From: Hydrolagus affinis
Taxonomy: Eukaryota
Assembly: GCA_012026655.1 (NCBI GenBank)
Contig: JAAILG010000403.1
Span: 1 to 64,000 of the forward strand
DNA length: 64,000 bases
Direction of reading: 5' to 3'
The notes beneath the pieces were generated by a model. That model saw only the letters and a program-made list of their open reading frames with translations. It ran no database searches and was not told the DNA's origin. Of the stretch, positions 5,435 through 60,370 are shown piece by piece. The translations under genes were made by a program, and so were the position numbers. Each line of letters starts with the position of its first letter. The stretch's first letter is position 1.

Positions 5435-5595
5435 GCTCCTATAGCTCAGCGGTTAGAGCACTCGCCTTACAAGCATGAGACCTGTGTTCGAATCCAGGCA
5501 GATCAGGGTGAAACCTTGAGCAAGTTTCCTTACTCCAATAATAATCCCCCACCCAAAAAAAAATAAAAAATTGATTATTTTCAATTCATGACTAT
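5435..5595 (+). mobile_element. tRNA-derived SINE, 5' half
   Basis: GCTCCTATAGCTCAGCGGTTAGAGCA (Pol III A box), GTTCGAATCC (B box), then GCAAGTTTCCTTACTCCA; collinear with 36297-36440. Confidence 0.9.
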
Positions 5596-5889: not shown

Positions 5890-6142
5890 GTACACCCCAC
5901 CCTTATAAAGCTTTCAATTATAACCCAATCTTGGGTGATACACCCTACCATCAGTATAAAGTTCTCAATTATAGCTCTCTTTCTATTACACAGCCCTTCA
6001 TCAGTATCGGACTCTCAATTATAAATCTATCTCTGTTACACATCCCTCCAACATTATAAAGCACTCAATTATACCTCTATCTCTGTTATACATCCCATTC
6101 TTATTTTAAGGCTCCCATTATATGTTAACCTTTAGAATGAAA
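5890..6142. repeat. Degenerate 50-bp minisatellite, about 5 units
   Basis: Anchor TCAATTATA (last copy CCATTATA) at 5914, 5965, 6015, 6065 and 6115. Confidence 0.85.
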
Positions 6143-6562
6143 CAGGCATTTGTCTTTTACTGCACTGTAGCTTGTTGAACTATTGAATTCTGTTGCTTTG
6201 CTGTTTGATTTGCTCTTTAGTAAAGAGGACAGAGAGTTATAATTTAATTTCTGGCACGTGTATAAAGAAACAGTAATTAAATTAAGTGTGGGTGAAGGAG
6301 AGCAGATTTCATATTAGCATCGAAGTTGGAATTAGTAGATTGTGCCTGTCACAGCACTTGTGTTCAAGTTAATAAGGAATAATGCTCTGCTTATTGAATG
6401 ACTTGTCTCGCTTTCCTGGAGGGGAGGCTTGTGCATTTTATCATCAGGAAACCTCAACCATGGCCAAATAATTGAGAATAATTCTACTACCTTAAGGACA
6501 GCATAGATCAGTCAACTCAGAACACACAAAAAAAAGCTCTTCGCAGAATATACTGTTAAATG

Positions 6563-6621
6563 TGTTATATATCCCACCTTTATTTTAAGGCTCCCATTAT
6601 ATGTTAATCTTTAGAATGAAA
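6563..6621 (+). repeat. About 60-bp direct duplicate of 6084-6142
   Basis: TGTTATAYATCCCA..TTATTTTAAGGCTCCCATTATATGTTAAYCTTTAGAATGAAA occurs at both sites. Confidence 0.9.
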
Positions 6622-7139
6622 TAAGGCTGAACTGCCTGTGTATTTTTGTGGGTCAAAATGAAAGAATCCTGCAGTGTAATGTTTGCAGATGGCGATCCAA
6701 CTGAAAACAATGCAGTGAATAAAACATTATTATTGTACTTCCACATGAAAGTTTGTAAAAGTGGGCAACCCACAGCTTTTCTGGGGCGTCTCCCTCACTG
6801 TTAAGTCAAAGTAGCTGGTTTTGTGATTTCCCTATCAGGGTTACACTACTAAGGAGAAGACCAGTGTAACTCGTACGAGTATGAGTTGTTTGGAAACTAG
6901 CGATTATCGGATTTAAGGGAAACAGCCGTGAACTGTCAGCAATATTAGACGTCATTCTTTTGATATATTGTCTGGGAAAGTCAAAGAGTCATGAGTTCCT
7001 CAGGAGGTTTCCTGTTTAACTCCTGCAGCCCTCCTTGCATTAGAATACATTGTTCAATACTATTAAGGATTGAATCTTTTGGATGACAAAAGTAGATTAA
7101 GGAGATACACCCGAGGTAGTGACTTCACATGTTAAATCT

Positions 7140-7240
7140 GTTTATATTTTCATTTCATTTATTTATTTATGTATATATATGTATACACACACAATACACA
7201 CACACATAGACAATACACACTACACATGTTTACTATACAC
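7140..7240. repeat. Low-complexity (TTTA)/(TA)/(CA) microsatellite tract
   Basis: Direct inspection. Confidence 0.8.
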
Positions 7241-7463
7241 AGTAGAGTGAAGTGACTACAGTTATGCTTACCTGTCTCATCTTCTCCCACCTCATTCCTC
7301 TGTTCGCCCAACTCAGAGACTCGCCACGCATCCACCCTTCTCTCTGATAGAGGCTGAACCTTCAGTTTCTATGAAACAAACAACTATTTGCATTTATATA
7401 GTGCCCTTCAACAACAACAACTTGCATTTGTATAGCGCCCTCCATACCAGACGGTGTCTCAGA

Positions 7464-7676
7464 ACAAAAACAAAAGTTGCTGGGGAAACTCAGCAGGTCA
7501 AACAGTATCCATGGAGAAAGGAAAAGGAGTCAACGTTTTGGGTCCTGACGAAGGGTTGTAGACCCGAAACGTTGACTCCTTTTCCTTTCTCCATGGATAC
7601 TGTTTGACCTGCTGAGTTTCCCCAGCAACTTTTGTTTTTGTTTCAGATTCCCAGCATCTGTAGTATTTTGTGTTTT
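7464..7676 (+). mobile_element. Penelope-derived non-autonomous palindromic element with 10-bp TSD
   Basis: TSD GTGTCTCAGA at 7454-7463 and 7677-7686 (single copy in the uninterrupted L2 at about 17354); inverted arms 7464-7544 and 7561-7641 with one mismatch; Penelope origin inferred from the ribozyme motif. Confidence 0.85.
7540..7578 (+). ncRNA. Minimal type I hammerhead ribozyme motif (Penelope-like-element type)
   Basis: Stem I GGGUC/GACUC; core CUGACGA 7545-7551; stem II GGGU..ACCC; GAAA 7566-7569; loopless self-complementary stem III (ACGU); NUH triplet GUU. Confidence 0.7.
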
Positions 7677-8143
7677 GTGTCTCAGAGCACTTCACAATAG
7701 CGGAGCCTGGGGCCGAGCCAAGGGGAGGGGAAAGATGACCGTAGGCCCAGTCGAACAGCAAGGTCTTCAGGTGAGATCTGAAAATGGAAAAGGAGGGGGC
7801 GAGGCAAAGGGATTGACGGAGGGAATTCCAGAACTTCGGAGTGTAATGGCTGAAGGCATGGCCGCCGATGTTGGAGCGGAGGATTCAGGGGACAAGGAAG
7901 AGGCCAGACCTAGTAGAGTGGAGGCAGGAGATACTGCTGTGAGGAGAGAGGAGGTTATAGAGGGAGGGGGGGTGCAGAGGAGTGGAGGGATTTACACACA
8001 AGAGTGAGGATCTAGAAGTCGATCCGCTCTGTGATAGGGAGCCAGTGAAGTCTGGCGAGGACTGGGGTAATCGGGGAGCAAAGTTTGGTTCGCTTGAGAA
8101 TGCGGGTGGCAGAGTATAACTGTATCAGTTGGATTTTGTGAAT

Positions 8144-8315
8144 AATAATAACAATAATCTTGCATTTGATATAGCGCCTTATCATGTCTCCTAGGCGTCT
8201 CAAAGTGCTTCACAGAATAGAATATAAAATAAATTGACTATATTTGAAACAGTGTGAAACATAACAGCCAATTACACACAGCAGTGTCCCACAAACAGTC
8301 GTGGATTGAAGTGAA
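8144..8315 (-). mobile_element. tRNA-SINE 3' half inserted in L2
   Basis: (TAA)n..TTGCATTTGATATAGCGCC..CAAAGTGCTTCACAGAATA..CAGCCAATTACACACAGCAGTGTCCCACAAACAGTCGTGGATTGAAGTGA. Confidence 0.9.
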
Positions 8316-8354
8316 CTTTTTATTTCCTGAGGTAAGATGTTCTTATCTTGGGTG

Positions 8355-8425
8355 GTGGTGCCTTGGGACGTCCTCCCGACGTGAAAGGCGCTCTATAAAT
8401 GTAATTTGTTGTTGTTGTTGTTGTT
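8355..8425 (+). mobile_element. L2-type 3' tail with (TTG)n
   Basis: GCCTTGGGACGTCCTCCCGACGTGAAAGGCGCTCTATAAATGTAATTTGTTGTTG, near-identical to 55296-55354. Confidence 0.85.
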
Positions 8426-8469
8426 GGTGGAGGGGGAGACTGGCGAGGAGGGCGTTGGACTAGTCCTGG

Positions 8470-8690
8470 TTCAAATGGTGTAGCTTCTCACAATGTTTCC
8501 TTCCTCTACCCATCCACCTTGAACCCTCTCTATCTGTCTTTAAATCCTGTGTTAAAGCCAACCCCTTCGACTGTGCTTATGTCCGCCTCTCTTTCTTTCT
8601 CCCCCATCTCCCAAGCTAGGCATCCAATCTCCTCTTTGTCCATCACTCTGAGTCATGATCCTACATGAAAGGCACTGTATAAATTCAGGT
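8470..8690 (+). mobile_element. Old L2 3' end
   Basis: CTTTAAATCCTGTGTTAAAGCCAACCCCTTCGACTGTGC followed by tail TACATGAAAGGCACTGTATAAAT. Confidence 0.6.
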
Positions 8691-8784
8691 GTTTGTTTTA
8701 ATTTTAGACATCAAGCGTGAACTGGTTCAGAACATATTGATAGGGCGTGATATTGATTTGATCAGAACATTGATTTGAGTTGTT

Positions 8785-8982
8785 GTGATCTGGAAAGCAG
8801 TGCCTGAAAGGGTGGTGGAAGTAGATTCAATAATAATTTTCAACGTGATATATACTTGAAAAAGAAAAAAAATTACACGGCTATGGGGAAAGAGCAGAAG
8901 ACAGGGATTAATTGGATAGCTCTTTCAAAGAGCCAGCACAGGCAAGATGGGCTGAATGGCATCCCTGCTGTAAGATTCTATC
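8785..8982 (+). mobile_element. CR1 LINE 3' end
   Basis: TGCCTGAAAGGGTGGTGGAAGTAGATTCAATAATAATTTTCAA..GGCTATGGGGAAAGAGCAG..GATAGCTCTTTCAAAGAGCCAGCACAGGCAAGATGGGCTGAATGGC..GATTCTAT; paralogous to 60790-60910. Confidence 0.85.
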
Positions 8983-9909
8983 ATTCAGTGGAATAGCTAT
9001 GGTGTCCCTAGTGAGTGCAGGAGTTAGTTGCTGGTAATCATCTTTCGGCAAGTGGACAAAATCAAAGATTGTTGTATCTATGACTACTGGCAATAAATGT
9101 GGATGAGTCCTTGATACTGTTATTGATGTCCCATGTTTTGCTATTTCCTTTTTCTCTGTAGAACTACTTTCTCCTGCTCTCATTGCAGGAACAGCTGACT
9201 GAAAACTTTCCTATTGTTCTGTGAAGCTGCCAAGTTTTCTTTTCCCAGATTTGCATCCAGCTTGTGCCCTATATTAGCACTGAAGTTATTGGCTAAGCAC
9301 ATGTTGCAAAATGACATTTACACCAGAGCACCAATAATCAGAATACTTTTTCCACATAGTTGATCCAAAGATTAGTTGAAAATAATTTTACGAGTCGTGG
9401 CAGAAGCTTGTTCTACCGCACATGCCATCAAAACGCCACTTAAATTCTGGAGGTTCACTGGATCAAATGAAGCTTTCAGCAATTACTCATATATCTATCA
9501 TGTGTGCCTTCACATGTATTGATACGAATGCATACTGATAAAAAATAATTAAGAGAATGGAGAGCTCGCACTGCCGAGACAGACTCTGAAGGTGTTTCAA
9601 CTGGTAGTTCAAAGTACAGTACTGTGCTGGGAATCTCTGATGTTTCCACACTGAAGCTGCACTGCAGAGACTGAGGCTGCTTCCTGCAGTTCCAAGGGAG
9701 GCTTTGCAGCAGCACAAGATTAAAAGGACTAGTAAAAATGATTTCTGTTTTTTTAAAAAAAAATGCTTTCCATGATTGAACACTGGCCTCTCCTCACTTT
9801 GATACCCACCATTGATCACTCTATTGGGTCTTGCACCACATTGTAACAGCTGCCGCCATTCATGCCTGTTGTGAATTGTCTTCATTTGTGCATCTAAATT
9901 GGCAGCAAG

Positions 9910-17308: not shown

Positions 17309-17935
17309 TAACAACAACAACTTAGATTTATATTGCGCCCTCCATGCCAGGCGGTGTCTCAGAGCGCTTCACAAGAGCGGAGCCCGGGGCCGAGACAGGA
17401 AGAGCGGGAAAGTGACCGCAGGTGTGGTTGAACAGAAAGATCTTCAGGTGCGACCTGAAAATGGAAAAGGGGTGGGGAGGCGAAGGGAATGAGGAAGGGA
17501 GTTCCAGAGCTTTGTGGTGTAGTGGCTTTAGCACGGCTGCCGATGGTGGAGCAAAAGACTTGGGGTCAGGGTGGAGGCCAAATCCAGTAGAGCGGAGGCA
17601 GCGGGTACTGCTGTGAGGAGAGAGGAGGTTAGAGAGGTAGGGGGGTGCAGAGGAGTGGAGGGATTTAAACACAAGAGTGAAGATCTTCAAGTCAATCTGC
17701 TCTGTGGCAGGGAGCCAGTGAAGTCTGGTGAGGACCAAGGTAATCGGGGAGCAAAGTTTGGTTCAGATGAGAATGCCGGCAGCAGTGTTCTGTATGAGCT
17801 GGAGTTTGTGAATTGTGGCGGAGGGGAGACCGGCAAGGAGGGGGTTGGAGTAGTCCAGCCGAGAGGTGACAAAGGCATGGACCAGGGTTTTGCCAGCTTT
17901 TGGGGTGAGATATTGGCGGAGATGTTACAGGCATT
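17309..17935 (-). mobile_element. L2 LINE 3' fragment, comparatively young
   Basis: Encodes VLTRLHWLPATEQIDLKIFTLVFKSLHSSAPPYLSNLL..FRSHLKIFLF; (TTG)n tail; CpGs partly retained. Confidence 0.92.
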
Positions 17936-36296: not shown

Positions 36297-36612
36297 GCTC
36301 CTGTAGTTCAGTGGTTAGAACTCTCGCCTTACAAGCGTGAGACCTGTGATCGAATCCAGGCAGATCAGGGCGAAACCTGGGGCAAGTTTCCTTACTCCAC
36401 ACGCCTGATAATAATCCATCCAAAAAAAAGCACAATAATAAAAATTGGTCATTTCAATCCATGGCTCTTTGTGATATACTGCTGTGCACAATTGGCTGCC
36501 ACATTTCGCCCACAAATTTACAGTCAATTCACTTTACAGTATATTCTGTGAAGCACTTTGAGACATCGATAAGATGTGAAAAGTGCCATATCAAATGCAA
36601 GGATTATTATTA
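36297..36612 (+). mobile_element. Full-length tRNA-SINE with L2-type (TTA)n tail
   Basis: GCTCCTGTAGTTCAGTGGTTAGAAC (A box), GATCGAATCC (B box), GGGCAAGTTTCCTTACTCC (CORE-like), CTGTGCACAATTGGCTGCC, GAAGCACTTTGAGACATC..ATCAAATGCAAGGATTATTATT. Confidence 0.93.
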
Positions 36613-46660: not shown

Positions 46661-47233
46661 CAAGGCAACTGGCGTGTCCGGCTGGAACAACAAGGTAAGT
46701 TTTCTCCTTCATATATGTCAGTACATTATCAGTGGACCCACTGCAAATACATGTACCGGTTTCATTTTAAGCTCTACTAGAAATAACAATATTTTGAAAA
46801 TATGTACTCAAGGAGTCTTTCTGAAATAACTGAAACACATAATAATAATAATAATAATAACCCTTTCATTTGGTATAGCACCTGTATGCTGCGAGAGAAA
46901 ATATCACTGACAAATCACTAAAATACTATAAAGCCATATAAAAGAGAAATGTAAAATCTCCTATTGGCAATGGAGATATGGAGCAAATAGATAGAGATAC
47001 TGGAGGCAACAGCAAGTTATTGAGGAGGGCCAATCAAACATCATGAGTCTGGGGCCAGTTTTAAGTCTCTTCATAGGCAGGGTCTTCGGTTGAGCAGACC
47101 AGAAGGACACCCTATATGCTGCCCCTGCAATTCTCCTGTGCCTTTAATCATGTAGCCTTGTCTTGCCTTTCGCAATTCATTATTTGCTGCCTTTTAGCAT
47201 GGAGGGTTGGAAAGCTAGCCAGGTGATAGTGTA

Positions 47234-47609
47234 CCATATATCTCCGCGTATAAGGCGCACTCGCGTATAAGGAGCACCCCCTACTTTTGACCTTTTCTTG
47301 GTGAAAAAAAACGGAAGCATTTTCGATGATATTGCAGACTGGGTTTGGCAGAAGGCAGGCAGCAAGCACAGCACTGAAGTCCGCTGCTGCTGCCGCTGCC
47401 CGGGTGGTCGAGGCCGAAGCCCCGTCACCCGCTCCTCCCAACCCCCGCCGGACACTGACCAAGCCCCGGCTGACAGCGCGCCGGCCGTCCCTCCTGTTTA
47501 CTGTATTTCCGAGGCTCAAAATTTCTTGTACCTGCGTATAGGGCGCACCCCCAACTTTCGAGATCTTCCGACATGCAAAAAAGTGCGCCTTATACGCGGA
47601 GATATACGG
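47234..47609. mobile_element. Non-autonomous Tc1/mariner-superfamily MITE (Tc2/pogo-type TIRs), 376 bp
   Basis: TA TSDs at 47232-47233 and 47610-47611; 28-bp TIRs CC(A/G)TATATCTCCGCGTATAAGGCGCACT with one mismatch; internal GCGTATA.GG.GCACCCC repeats; no transposase. Confidence 0.92.
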
Positions 47610-49249
47610 TACTCTATTTGCACCATTCCCACTAACCTTGTGTTTGGGTTTTTTTTTACCTTCAACTCTCCCCAGCCCCCTCAATCTGTTTCCTCTTCCT
47701 CTCCATCTAATATCTCCCTCCTGGTAATCTAGCCTTGGATTTCCCTACAACAGAATTATGCATGTTTAATTGTCAATCACTTTCTATCCTGGGTGTGAGT
47801 CACAGGTATATTTGGAATGTCGGATGGCAAGGTAACAAGAAAGCACTGTTCTTATGTGGCAAGGTAAAAAAAAATACCCTACTCCACAGCATTTCTTTGT
47901 TTTACGTGTATTGAATAAAATTGTGTAATTTAAGTGCTGATAATGAGGACTGCCCCATGCAGAGCAAGGTGCTGCATTAAACTGAATGAACTTCACATCT
48001 TTATCTCTGATTACTTCCCTCTCTCAGGAGGTTTGAAAGTCAATGATGATGTAAATAATGCGGTCTGTTGGAAGGAGTGGACTTTTCTTAGTTTGTGCTT
48101 TCTTAAATCCTTATATTGACTTTTAATTTTCAGTTTAAAGAACAAGGGTATTAACAGTGTTTACAATGGTGTCAGGTAACACTCCTGCCAAGGGAAAAAT
48201 TAGAATGTTTTTCTCATGGGAGGATTGCTTTACCTAGTTTTTATCCTTTACCTTTCCAGTTTCAAAGCTGGCCAGAAGATTCAAAACAAATGCAACTTCC
48301 ATAGTTGTATAAATTGGAGCTGCTGGTTGAAGTTGTGAATTATAATTATATTAATTTTGCACATTATTTCAAACATTTTGCAGGAACATTTGATATTTTC
48401 CACACAAGGATTTTTTTTATTTCTTTATAAGTTTCTTATTCTGTGTCCACTTTTAATTCCTCCTCCTGCTCCTCTTAGGGGTACATTTATGTCTTATCTG
48501 CTGAGCAGCTACACATTTTTATCTACGAACGTCGATTTATCACTTCAATAACCACAAACTGCTTGAAACCATTGATTTATTCCTTGGTTGAAGTTGTGGT
48601 GGACTTAACATTCTGGCAAAGGTAAAGTAAATGTTCAGGCAAATTATTTTATACTCAGTTGTAGAAAAAAATAACTTGCATTGATATAGCACTCTTCAAG
48701 TAGAAGGGGTATAATTCCATACATTCACCGCTTTGCTTAGTCCATTTCATCAAACAACTAAGCATTCAAAACATTGCTTGTCTCAAAGTAAACCATTCTA
48801 TACTTTATTGCTGTCATCTTGTGTAGAGCTATGAAATTAATGCCTCACCCCTTATTTTCAACATTTTCTGAATGAATGCTTCCAACTTCTAATCTGCTGG
48901 ATTCTTTTCAAATCCATCCAGGAATCATCACAGGGCATCACATACCACATTTGTCAGCCATTCTGGCAGAATAATAAGTTGTTACCTCAACTACTTCCCC
49001 CCACCACCACACACACACCTTTATTTTACAGAGCTTCTGTGACTCCTTTGTAACTGTGATAGGCTGAACATACCTCTTGTATCAGATATTGGCTACTTTT
49101 ACAATGTTAGGAACTCTTTGGAAGGTGAATTTCATGTCTTTGGGCAATTTAATTATCTACAATGTTTTTGATGAAGTAATATTGGATTAATCGACTATTC
49201 TCTGATGGAGTATACATTTTGAATGCAATGAATTTCCCATCTTTCCATT

Positions 49250-50570
49250 CTTGTCGTACGATTTAACAGTGATGGAGCCTGACTCCAAGCTGGGGGGAGG
49301 GGGATTGGGGCTTAGTGGCCATAAGCACGGCCAAAGTGGAAAGTTTTCAGGTGGGACTTGAAAGAGGGGAGAGGAAGGGCAAGGCGTAGTGATTGAAGGT
49401 GAGTGACCCAGAGTTTGGGGCATAGTGGCTGAAAGTGCGACCTCTGATGGTGAGGCGGAGGGTATGAGGGACGAGCAAGAGGCCTGTGCCAGTCGAGCGG
49501 AGGCTTCGGGTGGTGGTTTGGGGAGCGAGGAGGTCAGAGAGGTAAGGAGGTGCCAGGGAGTGAGTGTATTTGAGCACGAGTGTGAGGATCTTGAAGTCAA
49601 TCCATTCAGTGATGGGGAGCCGTGGAGTCTGCCCAGAACTGGTGTGATGTGGGCATGGAGATTGGTCCGGGTCAGTATGCGGGCCTCAGAGTTCTGAATC
49701 AGCTGGATCTTTTGGATGGTGGAGCTGGGGAGACCAGTGAGGAGTACATTGGCATAATCCAAGCAGGAGATGACAGATGCATGAACGAGGGTTTCAGCCG
49801 CATTCAGGGTAAGGTACGGTCAGAGGCAGGCAATGTGGTTGAAGTGAAAGAAAGCGGTGCTGGTCAGAGACCTGATGTGGGTGAGGAAGCACAGCAGGGG
49901 GTCAAACCAGACGTCTAGGTTGGGCACTGATTCAGTGAGTCTGAGGGAGAGCTCAGGGAGATTGAGGAGTTTGGAACCACAAGAGTGAAGGCATTGACCG
50001 GAGCCAAGGAATATGGCTTCCAGCTTGTCCATGTTCAGCTGCAGGAAGTTTACACTCATGCAGGCCCTAATGTCTGCCAGACAAGCTGATAGAACATCAC
50101 CGGAGTTGCAGCTGGAGGAGACAAAGTAGATTTGTGAGTCATTGACATAAATGTGGAAGTTTACCCTGTGTCTGCGGATGACATTGCCTAGAGAGAGCAT
50201 ATCTATATATATAAAAGCCTTAGGTATGTTTCCGCAATTGTAACAATGAACTTCTAAAAAGAAAACAAAAACCAATACAGCTTAAAAAAAACAAAGAAAA
50301 ACAACCCAGTGATTAAAGCTCACTCTTTTTTTTGTAAACAACAAATACATTATTTTTAAAAAGTTTCAAAATATATGAATAAACATGTACAAAAACACTA
50401 GGCCGTGTATGTTACGTGGGGGTATAGCAAGTAGATAAGGAAAAGAAGAGGGTAAAGCATGAAACCCTGGGGTACCCACCAGGCGGGGGCAGGAGGAGAA
50501 ACTATTTGCTGAGATAAAATGGAGGCGGTTGGTTAAGTATGACTTGAATCATGTGAGTGCGGATCCAGAA
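49250..50570 (-). mobile_element. L2 LINE ORF2 RT-to-3'-end fragment, interrupted by an AT-rich stretch at about 50215-50440
   Basis: FKSYLTNR, LGNVIRRHRVNFHIYVNDSQIY (YADD-like), NFLQLNMDKLE, DYANVLLTGLPSSTIQKIQLIQNSEARILT..HITPVL and LAPPYLSDLL. Confidence 0.92.
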
Positions 50571-59500: not shown

Positions 59501-60233
59501 AACCTGAGCGAGGTTGTGGAGAATTTGATCAGGTGTGGGAAATGCCACAATGGCAATCAGTGAAGCTTGACCAGGATAGTGAGTGTGGGGGTGGGGTATC
59601 TGTTACAGAACTACCCACACAGGTTGGAATGAGTTGAAGTTTGTGGAGTAGAGTGAGAAAAATCAGCAGGAATCATCTAGAGCCTATCTCTTTTTTACAG
59701 GAGATAAAGATCTTTGATTGCATTTGGAAATGGTTTCACAGGTGCCACATATAGTACAGCACAAAGTAAACATAGTGAAAGCCTGCAAGAAACCCACTAA
59801 AAAAACTAGTTTTCAAACAACCTAACCCAAAGGTCTCTTGAATACCACAGCCTTGGCCAACAAGCTTCACGTATGTGTGAATTTCAGTAAAGCCACAGTT
59901 TAAGTGACGTCACTGACCACTACCGCTTTTCTACCGTAAAAGGGAAGTATGCGTGATTCAAGCAGCCCACTCAAGTGCATCACGAGAATTCCACGTGCTA
60001 TCATTAATTTACCATGTCATCTCCTTCCATTTCTAAAATGGTCAGGAATTCATGCTGAGTATGGTGTGGGGGGGCTGGTAAAGGTTCCATTTTGAATTCC
60101 TGGTAAAGCCATTCTCTGAACTAAGGGTCTAAATGTGTGAAGCAAAGAAACACCCTCAAAGTTGCATCAATTCAGAGAGATATTTGCACTTTGAGTTGCC
60201 CTCTTGATGTGAAAAAGACTTTATCAATGGAAT

Positions 60234-60272
60234 GAGTTCTGATGAAAGATCATTGACCTGAAACGTTAATTC
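60234..60272 (+). ncRNA. Second minimal hammerhead ribozyme motif (partly decayed)
   Basis: Stem I GAGUU/AAUUC; CUGAUGA 60239-60245; imperfect stem II AGAUC/GACCU; GAAA 60260-60263; GUU triplet. Confidence 0.55.
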
Positions 60273-60370
60273 ATTTCCTCTCTCTATGGATACTGCCTGA
60301 CCTGCTGTGTGTTCCCAGTGATTTCTGCATTTATACCAGATTTTCCAGCAGCTGCAATATTTCATGTTTT
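60234..60370 (+). mobile_element. Penelope-derived element, single arm
   Basis: Collinear with 7540-7676: CTGATGA..GAAACGTT..TGGATACTGCCTGACCTGCTG..CAGATTTTCCAGCAGCTGCA. Confidence 0.8.

Follow-up and report, generated by a model that had tools for sequence, protein, structure and literature searches.

Endonuclease-bearing (EN+) Penelope-like elements (PLEs) of the Penelope/Poseidon, Neptune, and Nematis types are described as inserting in units that consist of a pseudo-LTR (pLTR), an adjacent inverted 5'-truncated copy, and an optional tail (PMC8557442; PMC3846280). The inverted 5'-truncated copy is a frequent feature, with a tail of 30 to 40 bp present at one end only (PMC8557442), and inverted pLTRs have been reported together with a 31-bp tail and target-site duplications (TSDs) of 8, 9, and 10 bp, self-priming being proposed for the inverted junctions (PMC3846280). 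The purified protein of an anole PLE, Poseidon PAc, cuts and extends both DNA strands, and its two reverse transcriptase (RT) start sites bracket the tail; this PLE prefers AT-rich targets, its hammerhead ribozyme is protein-dependent and dispensable for insertion in vitro, and RNA-seq showed no ends where the hammerhead would cut (Frangieh et al. 2024, PMC11167929). The minimal hammerheads of metazoan PLEs are characterized by four named features, namely, the lack of loop III, a palindromic 15.2-16.2 segment, an extra base between positions 9 and 10.1, and a G10.1-C11.1 pair; they are described as mostly single motifs from truncated PLEs that cleave weakly as dimers (Cervera and de la Pena 2014, PMC4209133). 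Animal retrozymes are defined as tandem repeats derived from PLE pLTRs (bioRxiv 10.64898/2026.07.22.740005; PMC7229834), and they carry canonical hammerheads (PMC7229834). The retrozyme preprint sampled one chondrichthyan (bioRxiv 10.64898/2026.07.22.740005). No dedicated paper on chondrichthyan PLE hammerhead termini was found in the literature, and the supplements of the preprint may list the family described below.

We analyzed a 64-kb stretch of Hydrolagus affinis DNA (contig JAAILG010000403.1), referred to throughout as the window, by which all positions are numbered. A preliminary description had claimed a 213-bp insert with a 10-bp TSD, 81-bp inverted arms with one mismatch, and a 16-nt spacer, and a script comparison confirmed each of these measures. 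The insert spans 7464 to 7676 (213 nt) and lies between a left TSD at 7454 to 7463 and a right TSD at 7677 to 7686, both given on the plus strand and identical at 10 of 10 positions. Its arms, at 7464 to 7544 and 7561 to 7641, measure 81 nt each (82 nt if the left TSD contributes its last A) and flank the 16-nt spacer at 7545 to 7560. Their one mismatch, T7539 versus G7566, is a G.U pair in RNA; the arm has two CpG sites, and at one of them C has changed to T. The two halves of the insert are unequal. On the plus strand, a forward copy of 132 nt (7545 to 7676) comprises a hammerhead core, body, and tail, and family depth, loose ends, and a second copy mark it as the 5'-truncated 3' terminus of a repeat family. 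The left arm, on the minus strand, is an inverted, tail-less copy of 7561 to 7641 that carries the C-to-T change at CpG 7539. The inverted copy stops 34 nt short, at 7641/7642, and the forward copy outruns the arm end by these 34 nt; the tail (7643 to 7676, plus strand), in which a weak 5-bp hairpin is found at 7644 to 7660, is thus present on the right end only, a feature that the preliminary description had overlooked. The right boundary of the insert is uncertain by 2 to 4 nt, because the start of the right TSD extends the TTTTGTG repeat of the tail, its initial 2 to 4 nt doubling as a continuation of that repeat (microhomology), and the family ends at 7676 to 7678. The 81-nt hairpin is by far the longest of the 6 inverted repeats (at least 25 nt, within 600 nt) in the window, and its folding z-score is -21.8, with 0 of 200 shuffles equally stable. 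Around the arm/tail boundary (7607 to 7646), the plus strand has a run rich in T and then CAG, which looks like a 3' splice site, possibly by chance.

The insert interrupts a repeat on the minus strand that looks like the 3' end of an L2-type LINE. This label is based in part on an ORF2 C-terminal motif of the L2 kind, and its backing from tools is weak (the lead from the repeat atlas was an RT family, at 0.89). The extreme 3' end of the host LINE, with a (GTT)n tail, lies at 7410 to 7453, and its 3' region with a decayed ORF2 C terminus lies at 7687 to 8143, where a tblastn match extends up to 8036 and likeness was found to 17573-17912 and 49190-49819. The preliminary description had held that the insert splits an L2 3' end that is intact near 17354. 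In line with this, a paralog of the host LINE end at 17310 to 17813 (minus strand) is uninterrupted and contains the 10-mer of the TSD once, at 17354 to 17363, so that it can stand in for the empty site. It matches the host at 88.9% over the 54 nt left of the site (7410-7463 to 17310-17363) and at 81.7% over 458 nt right of it (7687-8143 to 17364-17813). Other repeats were also observed in the window. The extreme 3' end of the host LINE occurs a second time, over 32 nt (84%), at 7379 to 7410, directly ahead of the interrupted copy, and decayed LINE ORF2 frames (RT and C-terminal region) that are kin of the host repeat lie on the minus strand at 49187 to 50281. A 392-nt MITE-like element with 36-nt terminal inverted repeats (94%) is present at 47226 to 47617, and weak tRNA matches at 5435 to 5500 and 36301 to 36363 are probably tRNA-derived SINE heads.

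The center of the insert carries a minimal type I hammerhead motif, which we now read at 7540 to 7578 on the plus strand, with a core plus stems I and II, no loop III, and a predicted cut after U7573. Stem I pairs 7540-7544 with 7574-7578, the core occupies 7545 to 7551 and is followed by an extra A at 7552, and stem II (5 bp) pairs 7553-7557 with 7561-7565. GAAA follows at 7566 to 7569, overlapping a 6-nt palindrome at 7568 to 7573 that would allow a stem III to form in a dimer. The descriptor for a minimal type I hammerhead gave a single match on both strands of the window, at 7545, and on 30 Markov shuffles it gave one loose match in total and no strict match. The Rfam hammerhead models gave no match at gathering score over the window and none at an E value of ≤10 over 7300 to 7850, where the 19 matches of any kind were below gathering and mostly to generic miRNA hairpins. 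The hammerhead claimed in the preliminary description is therefore upheld by the descriptor, though Rfam is silent. Furthermore, the core is kept in the second family copy in the window, which is 74% identical. Across these two copies only, stem II has one pair altered on both sides (G-C/A-U), one altered on a single side, and one that no longer pairs; the same comparison for stem I is confounded by the inversion.

Like the minimal hammerheads of metazoan PLEs as they are described, the motif has all four of the named features, a 4- to 5-bp stem I, and the character of a single motif (Cervera and de la Pena 2014, PMC4209133). It differs from those described there in its GUU triplet, in being sequestered in a hairpin, in a 5' strand of stem I that was likely donated by the inversion, and in a stem II of 5 bp versus 7 to 8 bp in the Schistosoma families (PMC4209133). 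The GGGTC that precedes the core is most simply read as the end of the inverted arm (the reverse complement of 7561-7565), because the native upstream sequence of the family differs. The 5' strand of stem I in the insert thus probably derives from the inverted arm, joined to the core perhaps through short microhomology, and the native stem I of the family would be about 4 bp. We also considered that the forward copy might begin at the 7539 mismatch, but discarded this reading, since the family's native sequence there differs.

Folding predictions indicate that the hammerhead would be silenced by its surroundings. Stems I and II are predicted in an RNA of 7540 to 7578 (0.78 to 0.98), and an RNA of 7540 to 7676 likewise forms both, but 8 further nucleotides of the left arm abolish them. 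In the whole insert, the hammerhead fold is predicted to be disfavored by +30.3 kcal/mol, with a probability of 5e-22, so that the full 81-bp hairpin is predicted to block the hammerhead in any plus-strand read-through RNA from the locus. For the RNA proposed earlier for in vitro cleavage, 7535 to 7585, the predictions give a misfolded structure (stem II probability, 0.006); 7540 to 7578 is the stretch predicted to form both stems. When two strands of 7540 to 7578 were cofolded, the predicted structure was an intermolecular fold that differs from a clean hammerhead dimer.

Within the window, nhmmer found two loci of the repeat family only. The second, at 60233 to 60370 on the plus strand, is an older monomeric copy with a decayed hammerhead, body, and tail, without an inverted arm and without a convincing TSD; it matches the insert at 74% identity over 139 nt (E value, 2e-18). 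The family was surveyed at 85% likeness with positions 7535 to 8134 in three contig sets (X1, X5, and X6) and one RNA run (X19), that is, in 4 of the 20 listed sequencing runs. Since the left arm lies outside the surveyed stretch, the joints detected could not include the junction of this very locus. Summed depth over 7575 to 7654 reached 2.0, 2.8, and 3.2 million in the three contig sets, and the median depths of the 8 pieces listed per run were 36, 52, and 58. The resulting ratio is near 5.5 × 10^4 in each set and is to be read as an order of magnitude (about 5 × 10^4), not as a copy number. By this rough ratio the repeat family is very abundant, with which the two copies in 64 kb agree.

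The preliminary description had suggested a check for shared ends, and such ends were found in all four runs. Among the loose ends listed (24 of 2,678 rows), 3' ends at 7676 to 7678 occur in 631 contigs of X1, 656 of X5, 350 of X6, and 754 reads of X19, and beyond them the DNA runs enter unrelated AT-rich flanks (agreement, 0.38 to 0.41). The listed 5' ends at 7545 (218, 215, 196, and 428 in X1, X5, X6, and X19, respectively) have in common a native upstream sequence of about 15 nt that ends in AGTT; the consensus holds for about 15 nt in DNA and about 25 nt in RNA and then decays, and at 7544, T makes up 78% of the depth in X1. This upstream motif is absent from the window. No end at the inner position, 7642, is among the 24 rows listed, and the depth of the tail bin in contigs is 0.53 to 0.56 of that of the arm bin, a drop that edge effects could produce likewise. 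Two of the 15 listed joints (208 in total) change strand, at 7540/7608 and 7545/7605, with 0 to 2 contigs per run, and both differ in geometry from the junction of this insert. None of the listed pieces spans the junction of this locus. By word matching, no RNA runs were listed, and the best DNA runs had a word share of 0.75, which is compatible with an empty site or with about 1% divergence. In the RNA run, reads of the family fall on both strands (45% versus 55%), and no pile-up of RNA starts or ends was seen, this polyA single-cell library being a weak test of cleavage; two-strand RNA without such a pile-up fits passive read-through. After 7676, 415 reads of X19 run on into an (AAT)n-type tail that belongs to a different abundant repeat (agreement, 0.67), which may reflect either a target preference for such tails or one highly expressed locus.

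These ends invite comparison with the anole element (PMC11167929). The insert resembles PAc in that its inverted and forward copies end about 90 and 124 nt, respectively, downstream of where stem II begins, on either side of the tail, and the family resembles it in having AT-rich flanks and in showing no RNA ends where the hammerhead would cut. In contrast to PAc, where RT starts in an AC-rich stem loop, the family ends are GU rich on the hammerhead strand; the insert has no start codon in stem II, where the PAc ORF starts; and its target here is 50% GC, unlike the AT-rich preference of PAc.

No RT or GIY-YIG domain was found by Pfam among the 133 ORFs of at least 70 amino acids in the window, the one weak match (DUF687) lying below the cut-off, and tblastn with P0001 across the window found no RT/GIY-YIG ORF. 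DNA pattern scans for family loci returned 0 in viral contigs and 0 and 0 in metagenome contigs, and those of genome contigs returned 3, 0, and 0 loci, none of the 3 from this family. Locus L002 was rejected as a hammerhead, being a chance match without stem I, and L001 and L003 were rejected as family members, being minimal hammerheads of other organisms that are alike in motif only. Both of the latter (L003:2001-2967 and L001:2001-2027) are animal-type minimal hammerheads on contigs of one bacterial MAG and are probably animal host Penelope DNA contaminating it; L003 contains a GIY-YIG ORF with a CX4CX2C linker, and some 90 nt downstream of that ORF is a hammerhead shaped like the one in the insert.

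A profile-free search of protein representatives returned 3 matches, one of which is a chance bacterial repeat protein. A Callorhinchus milii Ig-like gene model (P0003) reads in frame through the repeat, and a whale-shark gene model (P0004) reads in frame through a mirror-image copy. The repeat can be placed in cartilaginous fishes because these two models contain it. In P0004, an antisense arm with tail is accompanied by a sense-arm match that ends at 7641, which suggests the same fold-back architecture, mirrored, and the same inner end, as judged from a gene model rather than from DNA. The read-throughs in P0003 and P0004 are probably annotation artefacts. Word searches of proteins, in which the repeat was translated in its sense and antisense frames, found nothing.

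On these findings, we read the insert as a copy, in fold-back form, of a repeat abundant in cartilaginous fishes. Most likely it represents the 3' end (pLTR), truncated on its 5' side, of an endonuclease-bearing PLE, which likely inserted by target-primed reverse transcription and was likely dead on arrival. The head-to-head inverted copy, the 34-nt tail at one end, the 10-nt TSD, the hammerhead in the terminus, and a target that is another non-LTR element are all shared with EN+ PLE units as these are described (PMC8557442; PMC3846280). Unlike such units, the insert has no ORF in its 132-nt forward copy. In its workings the insert resembles a PLE insertion unit and very probably is one, although the defining telomerase-like RT plus GIY-YIG ORF was not found linked to the family in the window or in the contig scans. 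Other observations also speak against this reading: the inner end is absent from the 24 loose-end rows listed, the target is GC balanced, the ends are GU rich where the one PLE tested in vitro starts in an AC-rich stem loop, and the upstream consensus fades quickly. Of the two origins offered in the preliminary description, it is thus the second, an extremely truncated Penelope insertion, that the minimal hammerhead, inverted arm, one-sided tail, and TSD fit.

In the mechanism we propose, the GIY-YIG endonuclease of a PLE would make staggered nicks 10 nt apart, and RT would prime at the outer start site (7676 to 7678), aided by the 2 to 4 nt of microhomology, and stop at the hammerhead. The inverted arm could then arise in one of two ways: the cDNA may fold back at the complementarity between stem I and stem II, or the same template may be primed again, from the second nick, at the inner start site (7642), with the two cDNAs joining head to head. 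The 34-nt tail would represent the gap between the two RT start sites, and an inner end that falls right at the boundary of the tail is consistent with RT starting a second time. The CpG in the left arm would have decayed later, and in the parent RNA the minimal hammerhead may work as a dimer or with the help of protein. The arms have in common three minority bases, at 7599, 7603, and 7604, where the family majority in X1 is 98%, 81%, and 60%, respectively; they therefore go back to one template, and fold-back is the simplest account.

We give a smaller but real chance to another source RNA for the same, unchanged integration mechanism, in which PLE enzymes acting in trans copied a short, ORF-less, SINE-like pLTR family of about 150 to 200 nt whose 5' end is fixed a short way upstream of the hammerhead. 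There is room for a short non-autonomous source because the upstream consensus fades so quickly, in DNA and in RNA, and because no ORF link to the family was obtained, either from the window ORFs or by tblastn. The rough abundance of about 5 × 10^4 also favors such a source, and non-autonomous PLE derivatives have been reported. However, heavy 5' truncation of autonomous PLEs looks the same, as described in these sources (PMC8557442; bioRxiv 10.64898/2026.07.22.740005), and the copies in the window begin at different points, 7545 and about 60233, with no fixed 5' end demonstrated.

With respect to age, the arms and TSD show 1 difference in 91 paired sites (upper 95% bound, 5.1%), and the sole arm difference falls at a CpG. 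Host and paralog diverge by 18%, and the insert and the older family copy by 26%. The earlier statement that the element moved recently accordingly stands relative to the host and the older copy, with an arm divergence of at most about 5%, but not as an absolute age, since arm homogenization is possible. An old insertion, with the identity of the arms kept by intra-strand gene conversion or by template switching at the palindrome, would alter the age only, and we consider it improbable. It would agree with the non-majority bases that both arms carry at 7599, 7603, and 7604, and no empty allele was seen, though no listed piece spans the junction. Fold-back copying, however, directly accounts for the variants common to the arms, and the identical TSDs are out of reach of conversion between arms. 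At 10% divergence, moreover, ≤1 difference in 91 sites has a probability of 0.0008.

Much less credible is the first origin offered in the preliminary description, in which the 213-nt hairpin is itself mobile, as a retrozyme-like RNA that cleaves itself (as a dimer) and reinserts. The insert resembles animal non-LTR retrozymes in being short, non-coding, and probably PLE derived and in having a type I hammerhead (PMC7229834; bioRxiv 10.64898/2026.07.22.740005), and an intact core, near-perfect arms, a clean TSD, and a palindrome at 7568 to 7573 that would permit a dimer stem III are what a mobile hairpin calls for. Retrozymes as described are nevertheless head-to-tail tandem repeats with canonical hammerheads and circular RNAs, whereas the insert has a single minimal motif and a head-to-head inversion (PMC7229834; bioRxiv 10.64898/2026.07.22.740005); at this locus there is one hammerhead in 64 kb and no head-to-tail tandem array at 6000 to 9500, and by the fold predictions the hairpin keeps the hammerhead from forming. 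The hairpin looks like an integration product rather than a mobile unit because the commonest listed 5' ends run into other native sequence instead of a fold-back, although contigs show the junction poorly and the left arm lies outside the surveyed stretch. X19, weak as a test for the library reason given above, likewise has no site where many RNAs begin or end. A fold-back or MITE-type DNA transposon with a chance hammerhead-like loop would also explain long inverted arms plus a TSD, but its probability is close to nil, given that a 34-nt tail on one side keeps the arms from being terminal, that the family includes a monomer without inverted arm at 60233 to 60370 and has a fixed 3' end and a T-rich terminus, and that the strict descriptor matches in 0 of 30 shuffles and its core is kept in the 74%-identical copy.

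The probable PLE terminus described here, in fold-back form, is a small and neat instance of an insertion pattern already published, and it matters little alone. The family to which it belongs presents an annotation hazard, in that copies of the repeat enter gene models predicted for a chimaera and for a shark. Because the genome evolves slowly and the family numbers tens of thousands of copies, its countable ends and junctions could test how the inverted copy and tail of PLEs are formed, a step left unvalidated in the anole study (PMC11167929). As a more specific conjecture, of low probability, the repeat may be an ORF-less, SINE-like Penelope satellite of 150 to 200 nt, present in chimaeras and sharks in tens of thousands of copies, in which the complementarity of stem I and stem II serves as a recurrent self-priming point for fold-backs. 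If so, the hammerhead would shape integration as a DNA or RNA structure rather than through cleavage, and the family would constitute a large natural test of fold-back versus two-primer models of PLE integration.
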